In this document: piece after piece, positions 8,073 to 18,144 of the stretch | How the letters are laid out: every line of letters begins with the position of its first letter | Numbering within the stretch: position 1 is the stretch's first letter | Source of the DNA: Bdellovibrionales bacterium RIFOXYD12_FULL_39_22 | GTDB lineage: Bacteria; Bdellovibrionota; Bacteriovoracia; Bacteriovoracales; Bacteriovoracaceae | Length of the DNA: 20,642 nucleotides | Reading direction: 5' to 3' | Assembly: GCA_001770205.1 (NCBI GenBank) | Contig: MEQL01000050.1 | Coordinates: 62,001 to 82,642, forward strand | Notes under the pieces: model-generated | Told to the model about the DNA's origin: nothing | The model's database searches: none | The model's input: only the letters and a program-made list of their open reading frames with translations | Translations under genes and position numbers: made by a program

Positions 8073-9233
8073 TTAATTGAGCAAAAACGTTTCGTTGTTA
8101 CTGGAGCTATTACCGTTTAACGCAGCATGAATACTGAGTTTTTCTCCGGCGGCCCGGCCATGCTTATTGGCCTCGGGACAAAATTTTGCGGTGGAGCGTG
8201 AAGAGCGTAGTCGTTCATAGACTCGCTCAAGATGTATCTGTAATGAGTCTTTTAATATTATAAGTTCATCTGCTTGGGATTTATTTGCGTTGGAGCTTTC
8301 TTGCTCGGCACGCTCCATTTTCTCAATGAAGCCTTTGGCGATTCCTAGCATGAAGGAGTTTTTTTGGGTTATCCCACTTAGTCGTCCTCGTGAAGATATG
8401 CGAGCATCATTCCACATTGCTTCTAATTCATGATCCAAAAAATTAGCAACATAATTTGCAATTTCTACGTTGGTCTTGTTACCAATAACCTCCATATAGA
8501 AAAAATTATGGCCATGGTTGTAAATAGTTTTAACCCAAAATTTAGAAAGGATCTGAGAGATGGCGTGATGCTTGCCACTTCTTTTATTAGCAATCAAGAC
8601 TCGTTTCATGTAGGAGGTTTCCAAGTTGTCCTCCGTTTGTTGGCGAATGGTGCTAAGGTTGTGTTCCAAAATAAGTTTGTTGGCCATGACCATCGCTAGT
8701 TCTGCTTCGTGTTTATTGCTGCTGGAGCTTAAGGCCAATAATTTTTTCACTTTCTCAATAACTCGTTCGGATGGCAGATCACCTTCTACTGAGCTATTGG
8801 CCAATTCCAAATTGACCGAGGCCGCCGATATCTCCTCGCCCCAGGAAAAGTGATCACATATAAACTTAAAGGACTTGCTATGGCCGATGCTATCGTATCG
8901 TTGCATTATAACAACACTTATGTAGTGGGCCAACTCATGGCGAAGAATGTTCTTTATGACTTCTGTTTTTGCCGTAAACATCAGCTTTTTATGTAATCCA
9001 ATTTGGTAAAGTGTTGGATCACAAAAACCTAGGGTGGTTAAATTTTCGTAGACCACAATATTTAAAGGGTAGGTTGATCCGTCGAGAGAAAGCACTCTGG
9101 TTTGGGATAAACAGAGATTGGTCTCATTGGCCAAAATTTCTCGTACGTAGGAGCGAATGCGACTGATGAAGCTGGCAGTCGTATTCGAATACAAAAAAAG
9201 ACAATTATTGAAATCTTGAGTTTCTGGGGCCAT
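8073..9233 (-). CDS. SprT-like zinc metalloprotease domain plus DUF2786 protein
   Basis: ILRHELAH (HExxH) followed by a third His in GHSKSF. A DUF2786-type segment VIEKVKKLLALSSSSNKHEAELAMVMANKLILEHNL follows. GAGGAG RBS. Confidence 0.8.
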   Translation of the reverse strand: MAPETQDFNNCLFLYSNTTASFISRIRSYVREILANETNLCLSQTRVLSLDGSTYPLNIVVYENLTTLGFCDPTLYQIGLHKKLMFTAKTEVIKNILRHELAHYISVVIMQRYDSIGHSKSFKFICDHFSWGEEISAASVNLELANSSVEGDLPSERVIEKVKKLLALSSSSNKHEAELAMVMANKLILEHNLSTIRQQTEDNLETSYMKRVLIANKRSGKHHAISQILSKFWVKTIYNHGHNFFYMEVIGNKTNVEIANYVANFLDHELEAMWNDARISSRGRLSGITQKNSFMLGIAKGFIEKMERAEQESSNANKSQADELIILKDSLQIHLERVYERLRSSRSTAKFCPEANKHGRAAGEKLSIHAALNGNSSSNNETFLLN

Positions 9234-11995: not shown

Positions 11996-12673
11996 TTAAA
12001 ATCCTCCTTGCAATGATGCCCAGATGGCGTAAGAGCTAAAGCCTACGGCAACAAGCACAGCAAAAAACTTCGCTTTAATTTTTATGTATTTCATATATGG
12101 ATCAAAATTAAATCCAACTGATTGGCATAGTGACCAAACACCGTGACTTATATGGATGGCCAAAACAATCATCAGGCCCACGTAAAATATCACGTTAAGT
12201 TTGTTCTGGTAAAACTCCAGCATGAGTTTGTGTAAATCACGCATCTGGGTGCCATCAAATGTACCAATATAAACGGGGCCAAATTTGAAGTTGATTAGAT
12301 GAATAATTAAAAAAATCAAGATTGCCGATCCGGTGTAGATCATAGTGGAGGAGGCAAAAGTTGCGCCTCGTCCGGAACGTACTTTCATATAGTATTTTTC
12401 TGGGCGTGCCACATAGTTTTCGATTGTTAGTTTGATAGCGTTATACACGTGGGTTAAAAAAATGATTCCTAAAATGGCCTCAATTACATAGATGAAGGGA
12501 TTGCTCATTAGTTTGTGGCCATAGTTATTAAATATATCGGCCCCAATAAACATCAAGCTATTCCCAATTAAATGCCCAAGTATAAAGAGGCAGAGAATAA
12601 AACCGGTGATACTCATTAAAACTTTTTTGGTGATCGAGGTCTTCCAAAAAGATGAACAACAATCTTTGCTCAT
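11996..12673 (-). CDS. sdhC: Succinate dehydrogenase cytochrome b558 subunit (single di-heme, five-TM anchor)
   Basis: Five hydrophobic helices with His ligands (GHLIGN, THVYNA, IHLINF, IHISHG). Lies immediately upstream of sdhA, with no sdhD. Confidence 0.92.
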
Positions 12674-12722
12674 AAGACTGAGACTCCTGACTAAAAGTTG
12701 ATAAAATTATTCGGAAGCGAGA

Positions 12723-12751
12723 AGGATAGCTTATTTGTTTGGGTTGGTTAA
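12723..12751 (-). promoter_or_regulatory. Possible sigma-70 promoter for sdhCAB
   Basis: Minus strand TTAACC-N17-TATCCT (4/6 and 4/6 match), about 50 nt upstream of the sdhC ATG. Confidence 0.3.
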
Positions 12752-12787
12752 GTAGTTTTTATTAGATTGGCATGAAAAATATTTTTT

Positions 12788-12835
12788 TGTCACATTTTTG
12801 ACTGTTTGTGCGGTGCGTTCGTCGACAATATGACA
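12788..12835. promoter_or_regulatory. Two imperfect palindromic activator-like sites (TGTCA-N6-TGACA type)
   Basis: TGTCA-catttt-TGACT (12788-12803) and CGTCG-acaata-TGACA (12820-12835), with centres 32 bp apart. Confidence 0.55.
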
Positions 12836-12858
12836 TGCCATCATTTTTTTTCTTGTGA

Positions 12859-12871
12859 TATCAGGATATTG
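12859..12871 (+). promoter_or_regulatory. IHF-binding consensus site
   Basis: TATCAGGATATTG matches WATCAR-N4-TTR exactly. A T8 tract lies upstream (12844-12851), and the site sits between the palindromes and the sigma-54 element. Confidence 0.55.
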
Positions 12872-12895
12872 TGCTTATTATTTTTTATGTATTGT

Positions 12896-12911
12896 TGGCA
12901 TATTGGTTGCA
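12896..12911 (+). promoter_or_regulatory. Sigma-54 (RpoN) -24/-12 promoter
   Basis: TGGCATATTGGTTGCA versus consensus TGGCACG-N4-TTGCW, with exact GG-N10-GC spacing. Predicted +1 is near 12922. Confidence 0.7.
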
Positions 12912-12921
12912 GACAATAGTG

Positions 12922-13008
12922 GTGTGTGTGTGGGGCCGCGAAAAAAGGATTTTTTCTAATCTCCATAGAGTGTCTCTTAAAAAAGGTCTGTGAAAGCAGG
13001 CCTTTTTT
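12922..13008 (+). ncRNA. Candidate sigma-54-dependent small RNA (about 87-90 nt)
   Basis: Bounded by the sigma-54 promoter and a + strand intrinsic terminator, with no convincing ORF. Contains a GU run and small hairpins. Family not recognised. Confidence 0.55.
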
Positions 13009-13015
13009 GTTTTTT
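12979..13015 (+). terminator. Intrinsic terminator, probably bidirectional
   Basis: A6-GGTCTG-tGAAAg-CAGGCC-T6-G-T6. On + the stem is fully paired with one G.U wobble and a GAAA loop. On - that pair becomes a C.A mismatch. Confidence 0.8.
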
Positions 13016-14941
13016 AGCGAATAATTTCTAATTCTTTAAGTGAAACTTTACTGGTGATCTCAAAAAGTGGCAGAAGGTAAACTTCCGCTTTAGTCCAAGG
13101 GCCATCATCAATAGTTGAAAGATCTAGCTCAATATTATTGATTCCGGGCATAATGCGGATTGCTCGGTTAGTATTAGCTGCACTTTTATCAGAAAAAAGT
13201 ATTTCCATGGTTAGGTCAGAGATATTTTCTTCTCCCAAAACCAGATTTGCATCAAAGTTTTGGCAGGAAAATTCAATAAAGGCCGCGTTTGTCGGAGTGT
13301 TTTTAGTGATAGAAAATTGCAGCAGCCAATTGGTTTCAATTTTATGTTGTTGCTCATCAAGTAATGTAATCGCGCAGGCCAGATAAGAGGCAGAAAGCTC
13401 TGGAATATTTTGAGGATAAATTTTTACAGAATATACTCCTAAATCTTTGGCAAGGGGAAGCCGGGTGAGTAGATCGGTACTGCGTTTAATTATTTTTTTG
13501 CTTATTGAGCGCGGAGAATTTTTTATTAGTAGTCTGGCATCAATGAGCGGACCGGCGTTGTTTAGCTTTAATTTAGAATTTTTTTCTGCCGTTAAATAGT
13601 TGCTCTGTAGTTCAACGTTGATTGGCCGGATGGATAGTTTATTGATGAGTGTTTGAGTGGTTCCCTTGTAGCGCGAGATAGCAATTTGAAAAAAACCGCC
13701 GGTGGGTGAGGTTGGAAAGAAGATATCTGCTTGCAGTTGAGTTTGAAAAAAACTATTGCGTACAATTCCGTTTTGATCCACCAGATCAATTTGGAGAATG
13801 TTCCCTTCGCCTTCTAATATTTCTGAGGAGAGAGAGACTCTTTTGGTTAATGGAGAAGCATAGAAGTGAAAGCGAGTACCTTCTTCTGCGGATAAAGTGG
13901 TGATTTTTTCCATAACTTTATTGTGACATGTTTGGGCGCGAATGATGGTAATGGGAATTTTGAGTAAAATGAAATACCCACTTTTATCAGTTATAGTTAT
14001 CTCTCCGAGTGCTTCCCCATTAGGCAATTTATCCCAAGCAATTTCTCGAGAATTGATGGCCACATTAAAGCGTGATTCGCCGCGGTCCACCCATAATTTT
14101 TGTGCACCACTGTTCAATAAAGGCCGCGTTGGGAATTGCTTGGGAGGAAAGACGAAGAGCGTTTACTACTAGGTGGGCGTATAGTGGAAGTCCTTCTTGT
14201 TTTATTGCAGAAATTAATATTGCCGCCAGTCCTGCAATGGCCGGTGTGGCCGAACTGGTTCTATTAAAGGCCATATATCCAACTTCAGGTGCCGAGTGGG
14301 TAAGGGCGGCCAGAGGAGAAATCAAAGTTGGTTCGGGACCATAGTCAGCGTGTCGATCTCTTCCCCGTTCCCCCTCGGATAGTTTTAATAGTCCACTTTC
14401 TTCTTCAAATTCGGCCGTAAAGGCCACCGATTGCAGGCGATTTTAGATAATCGAAGATGGCCGCATTTACTATGGCCTGGTAATTAAAGAAGGTGGAGTG
14501 CGAAAAGTATTTTCGCTTACCTGTAGATGTTGTTTTAAATCCTGAGTGTAAAGGAGAGATTCCGTCGTCGATCACTCCGACCACTACATTGCGTCCGTCG
14601 TAGGAGGGATGGTTTAGCAGGAAACGATGTAGATTAAAGTCAGTTTTGGCCATATAGAGAACTTTTTCATCTATTTTGAATTCGGCGTTAGGCGCATCAG
14701 TTGTTAAAGGATAGTTTAAAAAAGTTTCTTTGCTGGCATTTTTGTTTTGCTTGAAGCAACTGATGGCCTCGGCCCGTCCACTAAAGATTTTTATTAGATT
14801 TCCAGAGATCAGCAGTCCACATTCTTTTGCTTGTGCCAGTAAGTCAGCGGAGGCATCGATTGCCACTAGTTCTGCCGAATGGAGAGAAAAAATAAAAGAA
14901 AAGAAAGTTAGCAGAGGGAAGTAGAAAATTTTTGCTGACAT
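13014..14941 (-). pseudogene. Fragmented secreted subtilase (S8, tripeptidyl-peptidase II-like)
   Basis: Split into three ORFs. 14405..14941 has the signal peptide and YDGRNVVVGVIDDG...TTSTGKRK (Asp region). 14065..14427 has LISP...NRTSSATPAIAGLAAILISA (Ser region, NGTS changed to NRTS). 13014..14117 holds the C-terminal domains. No catalytic His motif is visible in any frame between Asp and Ser. Confidence 0.75.
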
Positions 14942-15025
14942 AATCATCCTTTTATAATTAGAATTAAAAATCCTATAACGATCTGTTGGGTCTCGTAAAA
15001 TAATTTTTTAAGGACGGGTAATTTA

Positions 15026-16714
15026 ATGGATAAAATTGTCGAATGTGTTCCCAATATTTCCGATGGCGTTCATCCAGAGGTTTATAATACGATTGCTAAA
15101 TCGTGTGAAAAAATTCCTGGCGTAAAATTACTGGATGTTGATCCAGGGGTGGCCACCAATCGTACTGTCATAACATTCGCCGGCCCTCCGGAGGCGGTGG
15201 TAGATGCTGCTTTTGAAATAATAAAATTATCAAAAGAGTTGATCGATATGCGTTCGCACAAGGGAGAGCATCCAAGAATGGGGGCCACTGACGTTTGTCC
15301 ATTTGTTCCAATTAGTGGAGTGACTCTTGAAGAGTGTGCTGATCTGGCGCGTCGACTTGGGCGAAGAGTCGGGGAAGAGTTGGGGATCTGGGTTTATCTG
15401 TATGAAGCGGCGGCCACGAAAACAGAATGGAAAAGTCTCTCGAATATTCGCAAAGGGGAATATGAATCGTTGGCGGCCAGAGAAGGTGATCCTGCTTGGC
15501 GGCCAGATTTTGGTCCAGAGAAATTTGATCCTAAGTTTGGTGGGGTGGTGATTGGTGCCCGTAAATTTTTAGTCGCTTACAATATAAATATTAATTCCAA
15601 CAATGTTAAAATTGCTAAAGATATTGCGATGAATATTCGGGAGACCGGACGAAGTAAGCGTGCGTGGTATCCTGATGGTGAAATTTTAAAAAATCCTGAT
15701 GGTACACCCATAAATGAACCAGGAATATTTAATCATTGCAAGTCAACAGCATGGATAATTCCGGAATACAATTGTGCCCAAATTACCATGAATCTGACAG
15801 ATATAGACGTGACACCGGTGCATAAAGTTTTTGAGGAGGTGGATCGCCAGGCGCGTGAACGGGGAATGCGAGTGACTGGGTCGGAAATTGTGGGACTAGT
15901 TCCTCTGCAAACATTGCAGGAGGCCGGAGCTTTTTATTTACAAAAACAGGGACTCTCGGCAGCAGTACCAGAAGAAGAATTGATATTATCAGCTGTTCGT
16001 TCGTTAGGCCTAAATGATGTTGCCAAATTTAATCCATCTGAAAAAATTGTCGAATATAAATTCAAAAAAAATGGCCCGCTGGTGGCCATGGATCTTCGTA
16101 AATTCGCTAACACCCTTGCATCTAATGAGCCGGCCCCCGGAGGTGGATCAGTTGCGGCCTTGTGTGGAACCTTGGCCGCTTCCTTGGCCACTATGGTGGC
16201 CAATTTGACTCATGGAAAATACGACTACAAAGAATCTTGGGAAAAAATGGAGAAGCTGGGGATCGATGGACAAAAACAGAAAGATTGGTTTTTAGACGCC
16301 ATAGACAGAGATACGGCCTCTTTCAATGTGGTTATGGATGCCATGAAGTTACCAAAAAAAACGAAAGAACAACAAGCTGAACGCACACGGGCCATCGAGG
16401 TCGCTAATCAAGGTTGTACCTTGGTACCACTACAAGTTTTAGAAAACTGTCTAAAAGTTTTACCGCTTTTGGATTCGGCCGTAGAGTTAGGTAATAGAAA
16501 TTGCATCTCTGACGTAGGCGTTGGTTTGCATTGTGTCCGTACATGTGCGGAGGGGGCGGCATTAAATGTGCGCATAAATCTAAGCAGTGTGACTGATGCT
16601 GTTTTTATAAAAAACTCTTCTGAAAAAATGAATTTTGCTTTAAATAAAGTTCGCGAGCAAACCGCTCACAGTTTACAAAAAGTTGAGGCAATTTTTGCTT
16701 CACTCAAGAAGTGA
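15026..16714 (+). CDS. ftcD: Bifunctional glutamate formiminotransferase / formiminotetrahydrofolate cyclodeaminase
   Basis: IVECVPNISDG, TNRTVIT, HKGEHPRMGATDVCPFVP, VTGSEIVGLVP, then the cyclodeaminase part PAPGGGSVAAL, IDRDTASF, SDVGVG, GAALNVRINL. Confidence 0.93.
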   Translation: MDKIVECVPNISDGVHPEVYNTIAKSCEKIPGVKLLDVDPGVATNRTVITFAGPPEAVVDAAFEIIKLSKELIDMRSHKGEHPRMGATDVCPFVPISGVTLEECADLARRLGRRVGEELGIWVYLYEAAATKTEWKSLSNIRKGEYESLAAREGDPAWRPDFGPEKFDPKFGGVVIGARKFLVAYNININSNNVKIAKDIAMNIRETGRSKRAWYPDGEILKNPDGTPINEPGIFNHCKSTAWIIPEYNCAQITMNLTDIDVTPVHKVFEEVDRQARERGMRVTGSEIVGLVPLQTLQEAGAFYLQKQGLSAAVPEEELILSAVRSLGLNDVAKFNPSEKIVEYKFKKNGPLVAMDLRKFANTLASNEPAPGGGSVAALCGTLAASLATMVANLTHGKYDYKESWEKMEKLGIDGQKQKDWFLDAIDRDTASFNVVMDAMKLPKKTKEQQAERTRAIEVANQGCTLVPLQVLENCLKVLPLLDSAVELGNRNCISDVGVGLHCVRTCAEGAALNVRINLSSVTDAVFIKNSSEKMNFALNKVREQTAHSLQKVEAIFASLKK

Positions 16715-16716
16715 TC

Positions 16717-18144
16717 ATGAGTAGAAACTGGTTTGTTTTTCACAAAGATCATCACCAAGGCCCTTTTTCGAAAGAGGAGCTGGTGGAGATGTTTGGCCAA
16801 GGCAATTTAAGTGGAGAGTCCTTAGTTTGGCAGATGGGAGCGGAAGGGTGGCGTCCCTACCGCGATTATGCCGAGCTAAATCCTCCCTTGCCGTTGGCCG
16901 ATGGGGATGATGGCCCACCTCCTTTTGTACCCCCTATTTCTATTACTGAAAATAGTGGTGCTGGACTGGCCATTCCTTCTATCTTTGAAAAAAAAGAAGA
17001 AGCAGATGTCTATGAAAGTCGAATTTCCAAGCGAGAAGAAGAATCTAGTTTCGATCTTTTGTCCAAAGAGCAGTTGGAAACACTAAATCCGCGAGTAAAA
17101 ATTTTTGTTGGTAGCGCGGGAGGACTTTTACTTTTGGCATCAATAATTCTCTTTTTTGTCTGGCCTGTGGCAAAGGCACCAAATTATGGCCTAAGTCAGG
17201 TGGACTATAATCGTTTGCAGGATGTTATTGGACAAGGAACTTTTGAAAAAGTAAAAATGGAATTTGCGCTTACACAGGAAGGAGATGAGATTGTAGTGTC
17301 CACAGGTCGGGCCAATAGTGCGCAACTTTATTTAACTTTAAATTCCATCTACGGAAAGATTTTGTCAGAGGATCAAATTAACATCACCACTTCCGCGCAG
17401 CTTAGAAATCATTTTGCTAAATTTTCAGTACTGACTTTTGAGAGTGGTAGTAAGTTAATTCCCGGTTACTATAGCGCAAAAGTTTATGGCAAGAGCACAC
17501 TGCTCTCCGATAAGGTCTATACTTTTTTAAAGAGACTTTCCTTTTTCAAAAATAAAAATATTTTAAGTGATTCCTCCTCTGATTTTATCTATCGAGGAGT
17601 AGTTTTGTTAACTGCTACTAATATAGCTAAATTTAAAAAAAGCTTGGAGGATTTTAATAAAAACATTTTAGAAGAAAAAACCAAAGTAATTAAGGGAATG
17701 ATTGAAAGTTATTCTACTTTAAATTCTGTGCTGGAGCGGCTCGATTTTGTTTATACGGAACTAATGCAAAAAATAAAAAATGGGCGAGAGATTAAGGAGT
17801 TAGAAAGTATCTATTTTTCAGAGATGGGTCCGCTTCTTGAGGGAATTGTGCTGCAAAGTTATGAAGGCAACGTTGTTTCAATGAAAGAGGGAGGACCAAA
17901 TCGCCTAGAGCAAAAAAATTTATTTGATTATGGAAAAGCGGTTGGGGGATTGGCCTCGGAATTAATTTCGGAAACAAAAAGTAAAAAGGCCATTTCCGCA
18001 TATGCGCGCGAGGAGTTATTGAATAAATATAAATCGCAAATAGAATCATTGTTAAAACGAGGCAAAAATGAGTTAATTAAATATGAGAATCAGCTAAAAG
18101 AGGAAGAAAATAGATTTAAATCTTTTCCTGGAACTGCCCGGTAG
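16717..18144 (+). CDS. GYF_2 (DUF4339) domain single-pass membrane protein
   Basis: N-terminal WFVFHKDHHQGPFSKEEL...SLVWQMGAEGWRP, a Pro-rich linker, one TM (GLLLLASIILFFVW) and a helical C-terminus. ATG 16717 lies 2 nt after the ftcD stop. Confidence 0.8.
   Translation: MSRNWFVFHKDHHQGPFSKEELVEMFGQGNLSGESLVWQMGAEGWRPYRDYAELNPPLPLADGDDGPPPFVPPISITENSGAGLAIPSIFEKKEEADVYESRISKREEESSFDLLSKEQLETLNPRVKIFVGSAGGLLLLASIILFFVWPVAKAPNYGLSQVDYNRLQDVIGQGTFEKVKMEFALTQEGDEIVVSTGRANSAQLYLTLNSIYGKILSEDQINITTSAQLRNHFAKFSVLTFESGSKLIPGYYSAKVYGKSTLLSDKVYTFLKRLSFFKNKNILSDSSSDFIYRGVVLLTATNIAKFKKSLEDFNKNILEEKTKVIKGMIESYSTLNSVLERLDFVYTELMQKIKNGREIKELESIYFSEMGPLLEGIVLQSYEGNVVSMKEGGPNRLEQKNLFDYGKAVGGLASELISETKSKKAISAYAREELLNKYKSQIESLLKRGKNELIKYENQLKEEENRFKSFPGTAR

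Follow-up and report, generated by a model that had tools for sequence, protein, structure and literature searches.

Positions 12896-13015 (+ strand) of the analysed window, a stretch of 20,642 nucleotides from contig MEQL01000050.1 of Bdellovibrionales bacterium RIFOXYD12_FULL_39_22, very probably contain a real, previously uncatalogued small RNA (sRNA) gene of the σ54 type. The predicted gene is present in single copy, is specific to the Bacteriovoracaceae and stands alone, and as judged from its conserved sequence and fold the encoded RNA is a new family with its own anatomy. The features of the locus are the following:

11996-12673, - strand: sdhC, divergent from the sRNA, with sdhA and sdhB next
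12789-12802, no strand assigned: putative activator site 1, GTCACATTTTTGAC, a GTCA-N6-TGAC palindrome conserved in tandem
12821-12834, no strand assigned: putative activator site 2, GTCGACAATATGAC, agreeing with the core at 7 of 8 positions and spaced 32 bp from site 1
12896-12911, + strand: predicted σ54 promoter TGGCATATTGGTTGCA (TGGCAT-N5-TTGCA), with the -24 GG at 12897-98 and the -12 GC at 12909-10 (GG-N10-GC)
12921-13015, + strand: predicted sRNA of about 92 nt, with its 3' end within the T tract 13003-13015
12922-12983, + strand: covariance-model match, 78.8 bits
12922-12931, + strand: invariant 5' (GU)5 tract, predicted to be unpaired at the 5' end
12929-12967, + strand: 5' hairpin with an outer stem of the GGGG/CUCC type
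12940-12956, + strand: inner stem GAAAAAA/UUUUUUC, part of the 5' hairpin
12947-12949, + strand: apical GGA, in the loop of the 5' hairpin
12970-12977, + strand: pyrimidine tract GUGUCUCU of 8 nt (family consensus AUGUCUCUC), unpaired in the minimum-free-energy fold, a candidate seed
12978-13015, + strand: intrinsic terminator consisting of an A-tract, a GGUCUG/CAGGCC stem and T6-G-T6, overlapping the stop codon of the convergent ORF (13014-13016)
13014-14117, - strand: ORF without a Pfam match, convergent with the sRNA, its 3' end lying inside the sRNA T tract
from 15026, + strand: FTCD, the first + strand gene after the sRNA

A first-pass annotation of the window had proposed a correctly spaced, rightward-pointing σ54 element at 12896-12911, and TGGCATATTGGTTGCA is indeed located there on the + strand. 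Twelve nucleotides past the C of the -12 element lies position 12921/12922 or thereabouts, the first base of the (GT)5 run, in agreement with the transcription start that had been placed near 12922. By its -24/-12 sequence context the promoter is of the σ54 type, and dependence on RpoN is predicted. The genome encodes RpoN (Sigma54_DBD, 220 bits) together with 11 clear bacterial enhancer-binding proteins (bEBPs; Sigma54_activat > 120 bits). The motif TGGCAY-N5-TTGCW taken alone occurs at chance frequency, with 14 copies in the 3.95-Mb genome versus 13 in a first-order Markov simulation, and the case therefore rests on conservation in relatives. Among 69 distinct loci with at least 200 nt of upstream sequence, GG-N10-GC was kept in 67, with T, GG, A and T-GC invariant, and the promoter was found at a fixed distance from the RNA core (10-16 nt, mostly 11-14). 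The two loci lacking GG-N10-GC have TTGAA or TTGTA at -12.

The genome as a whole contains 65 σ54-like promoter matches. Twenty-one of them are intergenic, and several are located 25-60 nt before small ORFs of 87-118 aa (contigs C9, C31, C37, C39, C40 and others). At six other intergenic σ54-like sites without a nearby ORF, a terminator was looked for and none was seen.

Folding of the + strand RNA 12922-13016 yielded -28.1 kcal/mol (z = -3.83), which none of 200 shuffled sequences equalled, while the - strand fold (-11.3 kcal/mol, z = -1.32) was reached by 22 of 200 shuffles. A terminator scan detected a hairpin, with 14 pairs, on the + strand only; the earlier impression that the terminator folds better in this orientation was thus borne out. 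Locus anatomy was determined for 70 of the 111 covariance-model matches described below (the 30 best and the 40 weakest, with the 41 mid-scoring ones left out). A hairpin followed by a T run was present right after the core in all 70 loci, with unrelated stem sequences, and the T run ended at a median of about 96 nt from the start of the core (range 85-110). It had been considered that the terminator might track only the convergent gene, then labelled 'S8'. As it was found whichever gene followed, same-strand genes included, the terminator belongs to the RNA and not merely to the convergent gene.

Covariation of the stem, which the first-pass annotation had named as a check, was seen in the 5' hairpin in two ways. 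In the model-fitted alignment 92.9% of cells were paired, compared with a mean of 85.9% after shuffling and 53-79% in slid controls, and 9 of the 11 pairs of the 5' hairpin showed changes on both sides. An independent MAFFT/RNAalifold analysis of 40 sequences also arrived at the inner stem, 5 of whose 7 pairs showed compensatory changes. With respect to primary sequence, three elements stand out among 61 distinct sequences: (i) the 5' GUGUGUGU (columns 1-8), conserved to at least 95%; (ii) AGGA in the apical loop, present in 61 of 61; (iii) single-stranded GUCUCU, present in 60 of 61. Conserved blocks are separated by distances belonging to all three classes modulo 3, as expected of a non-coding gene.

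The covariance model covered the RNA body alone, with 63 positions and 11 pairs, and included neither promoter nor terminator. It produced exactly one match per genome in 111 of 151 Bacteriovoracaceae genomes, and no match in the other 40. The carriers represent 48 of 69 genera of the family and 85 of its 110 genomes that are at least 90% complete. From 127 genomes representing other families in the phylum, no credible copy and only one weak match (E = 0.0075, 28.8 bits) were obtained, and in five well-assembled non-carriers searched with laxer filters the best E value was 0.33. The family is placed in Bdellovibrionota, Bacteriovoracia, by the NCBI taxonomy.

When the intergenic region was compared with 40 relatives by BLASTN, matches were obtained in five other genera at query positions 223-312 only, an interval that opens with the first promoter base and closes at the base of the terminator. 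All five share a common order, namely TGGCAC-N5-TTGC, (GT)n, AGGAG, GAARAAAGGATTTTTTC, CTCC and ATGTCTCTC, followed by a differing terminator. Three more short BLASTN matches of 22-26 nt fell elsewhere in the query. When one genome per prokaryote species was scanned for an exact pattern combining promoter, GT run and loop motif, at least 119 stretches were retrieved. All 80 titles listed were Bacteriovorax, Bacteriovoracaceae, Halobacteriovorax, Peredibacter, a higher Bdellovibrionota-type label, 'Bdellovibrio sp.' or 'Proteobacteria bacterium' (4).

That the RNA belongs to no recognised family, as had been suspected, agrees with the Rfam 15 search, which returned no match over the whole window, Qrr, GlmY/Z and Csr/Rsm RNAs included; at 12600-13100 the best score, 18.7 bits, fell short of the threshold of 55, and no E value was below 0.25. 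In the literature on Bacteriovorax, Halobacteriovorax, Bacteriovoracaceae and Bdellovibrio RpoN, no description of such an RNA was found.

The intergenic region (12674-13013) is flanked by sdhC and by the convergent - strand ORF 13014-14117. Beyond the convergent locus the next + strand gene is FTCD at 15026, which matches the distance of about 2.1 kb given before. The head-to-head arrangement with sdhCAB, also pointed out before, holds for the window but not as a conserved trait: sdhC adjoins the sRNA gene upstream in only 3 of 70 loci, and judged from gene order this placement is incidental. Upstream neighbours in the same set include a divergent OmpA-family gene (22/70) and an ORF of 80-99 aa (22/70); downstream, a convergent arginase-family (formiminoglutamase-like) gene occurs in 40/70 and FTCD on the same strand in 3/70. 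With its own terminator in 70 of 70 loci, no conserved ORF and varying neighbours, the predicted RNA conforms to the stand-alone gene of about 90 nt that had been proposed.

The label 'S8 gene' fared less well, given that ORF 14065-14427 alone matches Peptidase_S8, with 20.9 bits and hence below the cut-off of 21.8 bits. Three successive - strand ORFs (14947-14405, 14427-14065 and 14117-13014) are in different frames and have overlaps of 23 and 53 nt; they may represent a frameshifted gene or an assembly error. This ORF locus (13014-14947) was not found adjoining the sRNA in other genomes, as judged from the neighbours of the 70 loci.

Two further observations concern the neighbourhood. A slot beside a conserved GYF_2-domain gene (window 15026-18144; loci L216, L217 and L219-L221) is occupied either by the arginase-family gene, convergent with the sRNA, or, as in the window, by a fused FTCD. 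FTCD is formiminotransferase-cyclodeaminase and acts in histidine breakdown; the two genes may swap for one step of this pathway. In some relatives (L017, L040, L218) the sRNA region is immediately preceded by a SprT-like/DUF2786/DUF7168 gene (window 8073-9233), and in the window sdhCAB sits between this gene and the sRNA. The sdh operon therefore seems to have been inserted into an older neighbourhood.

Upstream of the promoter, the two putative activator sites start about 107 and 75 bp before its first base. Tandem GTCA-N6-TGAC palindromes spaced 31-33 bp apart were present in 52 of 69 loci compared with none of 204 control regions of equal size further upstream, and the distal palindrome started at a median of 138 nt before the RNA core. 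Throughout the source genome there are only two such tandem pairs, and the sRNA pair alone adjoins a σ54 promoter. Perfect GTCA-N6-TGAC sites number 15, of which 6 are intergenic. Besides the sRNA locus, two of the intergenic ones precede flagellar genes: fliL, at a distance of 195 nt, and a rod gene of the FlgF/G type, at 204 nt.

Both flagellar sites recur in relatives. Within 400 nt upstream of fliL, a perfect site was present in 17 of 30 loci and a match to at least 7 of 8 positions in 27 of 30; the corresponding figures for control regions downstream of fliL were 0/30 and 4/30. The fliL palindrome occurs in sRNA carriers and non-carriers alike. For the rod gene, 30 loci were reduced to 22 full-length matches by dropping 8 whose matches were partial or at contig ends; perfect sites were found upstream in 4/22 and matches to at least 7 of 8 positions in 14/22, as opposed to 0/22 in controls. 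In 7 of the 22 loci the rod gene has a TGGCAC/T-N5-TTGCT promoter 73-96 nt ahead of it, and no clear σ54 promoter was seen at the rod gene of the source genome. The conserved promoter of fliL, CTTGA-N17-TGTATAATTTTTGACA, is not of the σ54 type but σ70-like with an extended -10 (contig C38, 83900-84170; loci L313-L338), and family-wide a palindrome of the GGTAGAAATTTCC type is located about 50 nt further upstream of it.

The sRNA sites, GTCA-N6-TGAC with an A/T-rich centre, resemble the Pseudomonas FleQ consensus GTCaNTAAAtTGAC, and in the available text of the study describing that consensus fliL is among the genes that carry it (PMC6120874), so that fliL carries the motif in both systems. The same text characterizes the consensus as unreliable genome-wide (PMC6120874). 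Unlike in the FleQ regulon, no protein of the source genome reaches the FleQ-domain cut-off: the best score for PF06490 was 21.6 bits against a cut-off of 22 bits, and the sole bEBP among the weak matches scored 21.0 bits. A FastTree phylogeny of 89 bEBPs from 6 carriers and 5 non-carriers contained five orthogroups that occur in both sets, and none of the orthogroups tracks the sRNA across these genomes; one group is confined to carriers, yet is present in just 4 of the 6. None of the 11 bEBPs of the source genome was named above cut-off by NCBIfam, and gene neighbours provided no clue. Because the palindrome recurs upstream of fliL and of the rod operon, the activator of the sRNA would probably be the same flagellar bEBP, and we infer from the shared sites, with about even confidence, that the sRNA is driven by a flagellar-type activator.

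Regarding RNA-binding proteins, Hfq (PF17209) was detected in none of 41 Bacteriovoracaceae genomes, 34 of which have a completeness of at least 90%, and ProQ was not detected in the source genome. CsrA was present in 40 of the 41 genomes and was the only global RNA-binding regulator detected among CsrA, Hfq and ProQ. In the source genome csrA adjoins fliW within the flagellar cluster. The order of this cluster is flgM, flgK-like, flgL-like, csrA, fliW (contig C39, 78500-84900), which amounts to a CsrA-FliW arrangement of the Bacillus/Campylobacter type in a Bdellovibrionota genome.

Target searches with RNAduplex, in which the 5' seed and the linker seed were compared with 3600 start regions, yielded pairing no better than that of 10 shuffles each, and the 15 best linker matches as well as some 5' matches concerned genes of mixed functions. 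Exact complements of at least 9 nt were located near gene starts in 3 of 60 cases only. Pairing was likewise no better than with shuffles for the neighbouring OmpA-like (22 loci) and arginase-family (8 loci) genes. For start regions from carrier genomes, linker-seed pairing showed no enrichment at flgM (24), fliL (21) or the rod gene (18), with median percentiles of 39, 70 and 46, respectively. The best single 5'-seed match in the genome was flgM (-25.2 kcal/mol). A small ORF upstream of flgM contains the patch ACGCGCGCGC, a GC-rich alternation of purines and pyrimidines (C39, 80300-80330) that is complementary, G-U pairs included, to the 5' end of the sRNA. Since none of 29 relatives has this (RY)5 patch upstream of flgM, flgM was rejected as a conserved target.

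The following course of events would accommodate these features. A flagellar-type bEBP would bind the tandem palindromes and activate the σ54 promoter, and the resulting RNA of about 92 nt would act in trans, probably without Hfq. By the likeliest route, the GUCUCUC tract and the partly masked CUCC of the outer stem would pair with purine-rich ribosome-binding regions, and the invariant AGGA of the hairpin loop may provide a second contact, possibly for CsrA. That base pairing is the main mechanism is proposed here with somewhat more doubt than belief. The scheme in its entirety, i.e., a stand-alone sRNA gene under a flagellar-type activator whose product acts in trans by pairing, is put forward with confidence evenly divided between acceptance and doubt.

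Other readings of the locus were weighed against this scheme. Most serious among them, though in our view unlikely, is that the same sRNA gene serves mainly as a CsrA decoy, the AGGA loop and the frequent 5' AGGAG binding a CsrA dimer; the RNA would then lift CsrA repression of flagellin or other mRNAs, and the FliW-CsrA circuit would gain an RNA antagonist. The apical AGGA of all 61 distinct sequences speaks for it, as does the fact that the two A-U pairs closing the loop never covary and thus appear constrained in sequence rather than in structure. A second GGA within the first 21 nt was found in 42 of 61 sequences, one flagellin leader has a hairpin with an AGGAG loop and a AAGGAGGA Shine-Dalgarno sequence, and of CsrA, Hfq and ProQ only the near-universal CsrA, encoded beside fliW in the flagellar cluster, was detected. 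Known CsrA sponges have many GGA sites, however, whereas only one is invariant here and the copy in the window has GGGG in place of the 5' GGA. FliW is present as the usual protein antagonist, and a decoy does not account for the invariant tracts GUCUCUC and (GU)n.

Readings that dispense with a trans-acting RNA are far less probable. A cis-acting leader or attenuator of the downstream FTCD is suggested by the three of 70 loci in which FTCD follows the element on the same strand after 94-131 nt, and by FTCD being the next + strand gene in the window. This is nevertheless highly improbable: most loci have a convergent gene downstream (in 40/70 it is the arginase-family gene), a strong terminator follows the element in 70/70, and a convergent locus of 2 kb separates element and FTCD in the window. 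The chance-level frequency of the promoter motif in the genome, and a hairpin that abuts the stop codon of ORF 13014-14117, would also be compatible with there being no RNA gene at all, but a fortuitous promoter-like motif next to the convergent ORF's terminator. Promoter, RNA body, terminator and upstream sites are, however, kept together in 48 of 69 genera next to differing neighbours, by which such a coincidence is already contradicted and retains hardly any probability. An equally negligible probability is assigned to a very small protein, translated for instance from the AUG/GUG of the AUGUCUCUC tract as MSL(K/E)K... An AUG does precede UCUCU in 44 of 61 distinct sequences, but in others the codon is ACG, UUU, CUA or similar. 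No synonymous change was ever seen in the UCU and CUC triplets among the 61 sequences, the frame enters unrelated terminator sequence, the block spacing is not in multiples of three, and a Shine-Dalgarno sequence is absent at working distance.

sRNAs under σ54 control are already known (Qrr, GlmY, Pxr and FlmE), and by comparison the trans-acting sRNA proposed here appears to resemble them in kind. With Vibrio Qrr1-5, which depend on LuxO and σ54, the predicted sRNA shares its stand-alone nature, its length of about 100 nt, the σ54 promoter, upstream sites for a bEBP, the invariant unpaired region and the intrinsic terminator. It differs in that no Rfam match was obtained down to E = 10, in its single copy, in a host family without detectable Hfq and in having no adjoining bEBP gene. 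Myxococcus Pxr, located beside its two-component regulator, is likewise a small multi-hairpin RNA with a σ54-type promoter from a predatory former deltaproteobacterium; the present sRNA, in contrast, has no adjoining two-component regulator and matches no Rfam family. GlmY and CsrB/RsmY/RsmZ are protein-sequestering RNAs. GlmY has a σ54 promoter in common with the sRNA, which gave no Rfam match. CsrB/RsmY/RsmZ have GGA in a hairpin loop as well, but the sRNA has one invariant GGA, with a second in 42/61 sequences, and again no Rfam match.

Campylobacter lacks Hfq and uses CsrA-FliW. According to the available text on CJnc230/FlmE of Campylobacter jejuni, this RpoN-dependent sRNA is processed from the flgE mRNA and represses flgM (PMC11187230). 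So far as that account goes, FlmE is comparable as an RpoN-dependent sRNA tied to the flagellar hierarchy, a tie that in the present case consists of a predicted promoter and a presumed activator. By the same account the two differ in origin, FlmE being derived from the flgE mRNA whereas the sRNA has its own promoter and upstream sites. They also differ with respect to flgM, repressed by FlmE but complementary to the present sRNA in the source genome only and not in 29 relatives.

Bacteriovorax and Halobacteriovorax are obligate predators that alternate between a motile attack phase and growth inside prey, and in the literature no riboregulator described for either was found. The sRNA gene has a complete predicted regulatory anatomy, comprising activator sites, σ54 promoter, seed candidates and terminator, and it is conserved over dozens of genera without Hfq. 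It constitutes a new family for RNA databases, for which a covariance model with 111 single-copy matches is at hand. As a tentative model, held with less confidence than the pairing mechanism itself, the Bacteriovoracaceae might possess an RNA arm of the flagellar (attack-phase) programme: the σ54 flagellar activator would also fire the RNA of about 92 nt, which would retune translation without Hfq via its anti-Shine-Dalgarno-like GUCUCUC seed and/or its CsrA-binding GGA loop. If the link to a flagellar activator is true, it would offer a handle on the post-transcriptional coordination of motility and metabolism in predators, and through the RNA arm, if real, motility would be linked with the other parts of the predatory cell cycle.
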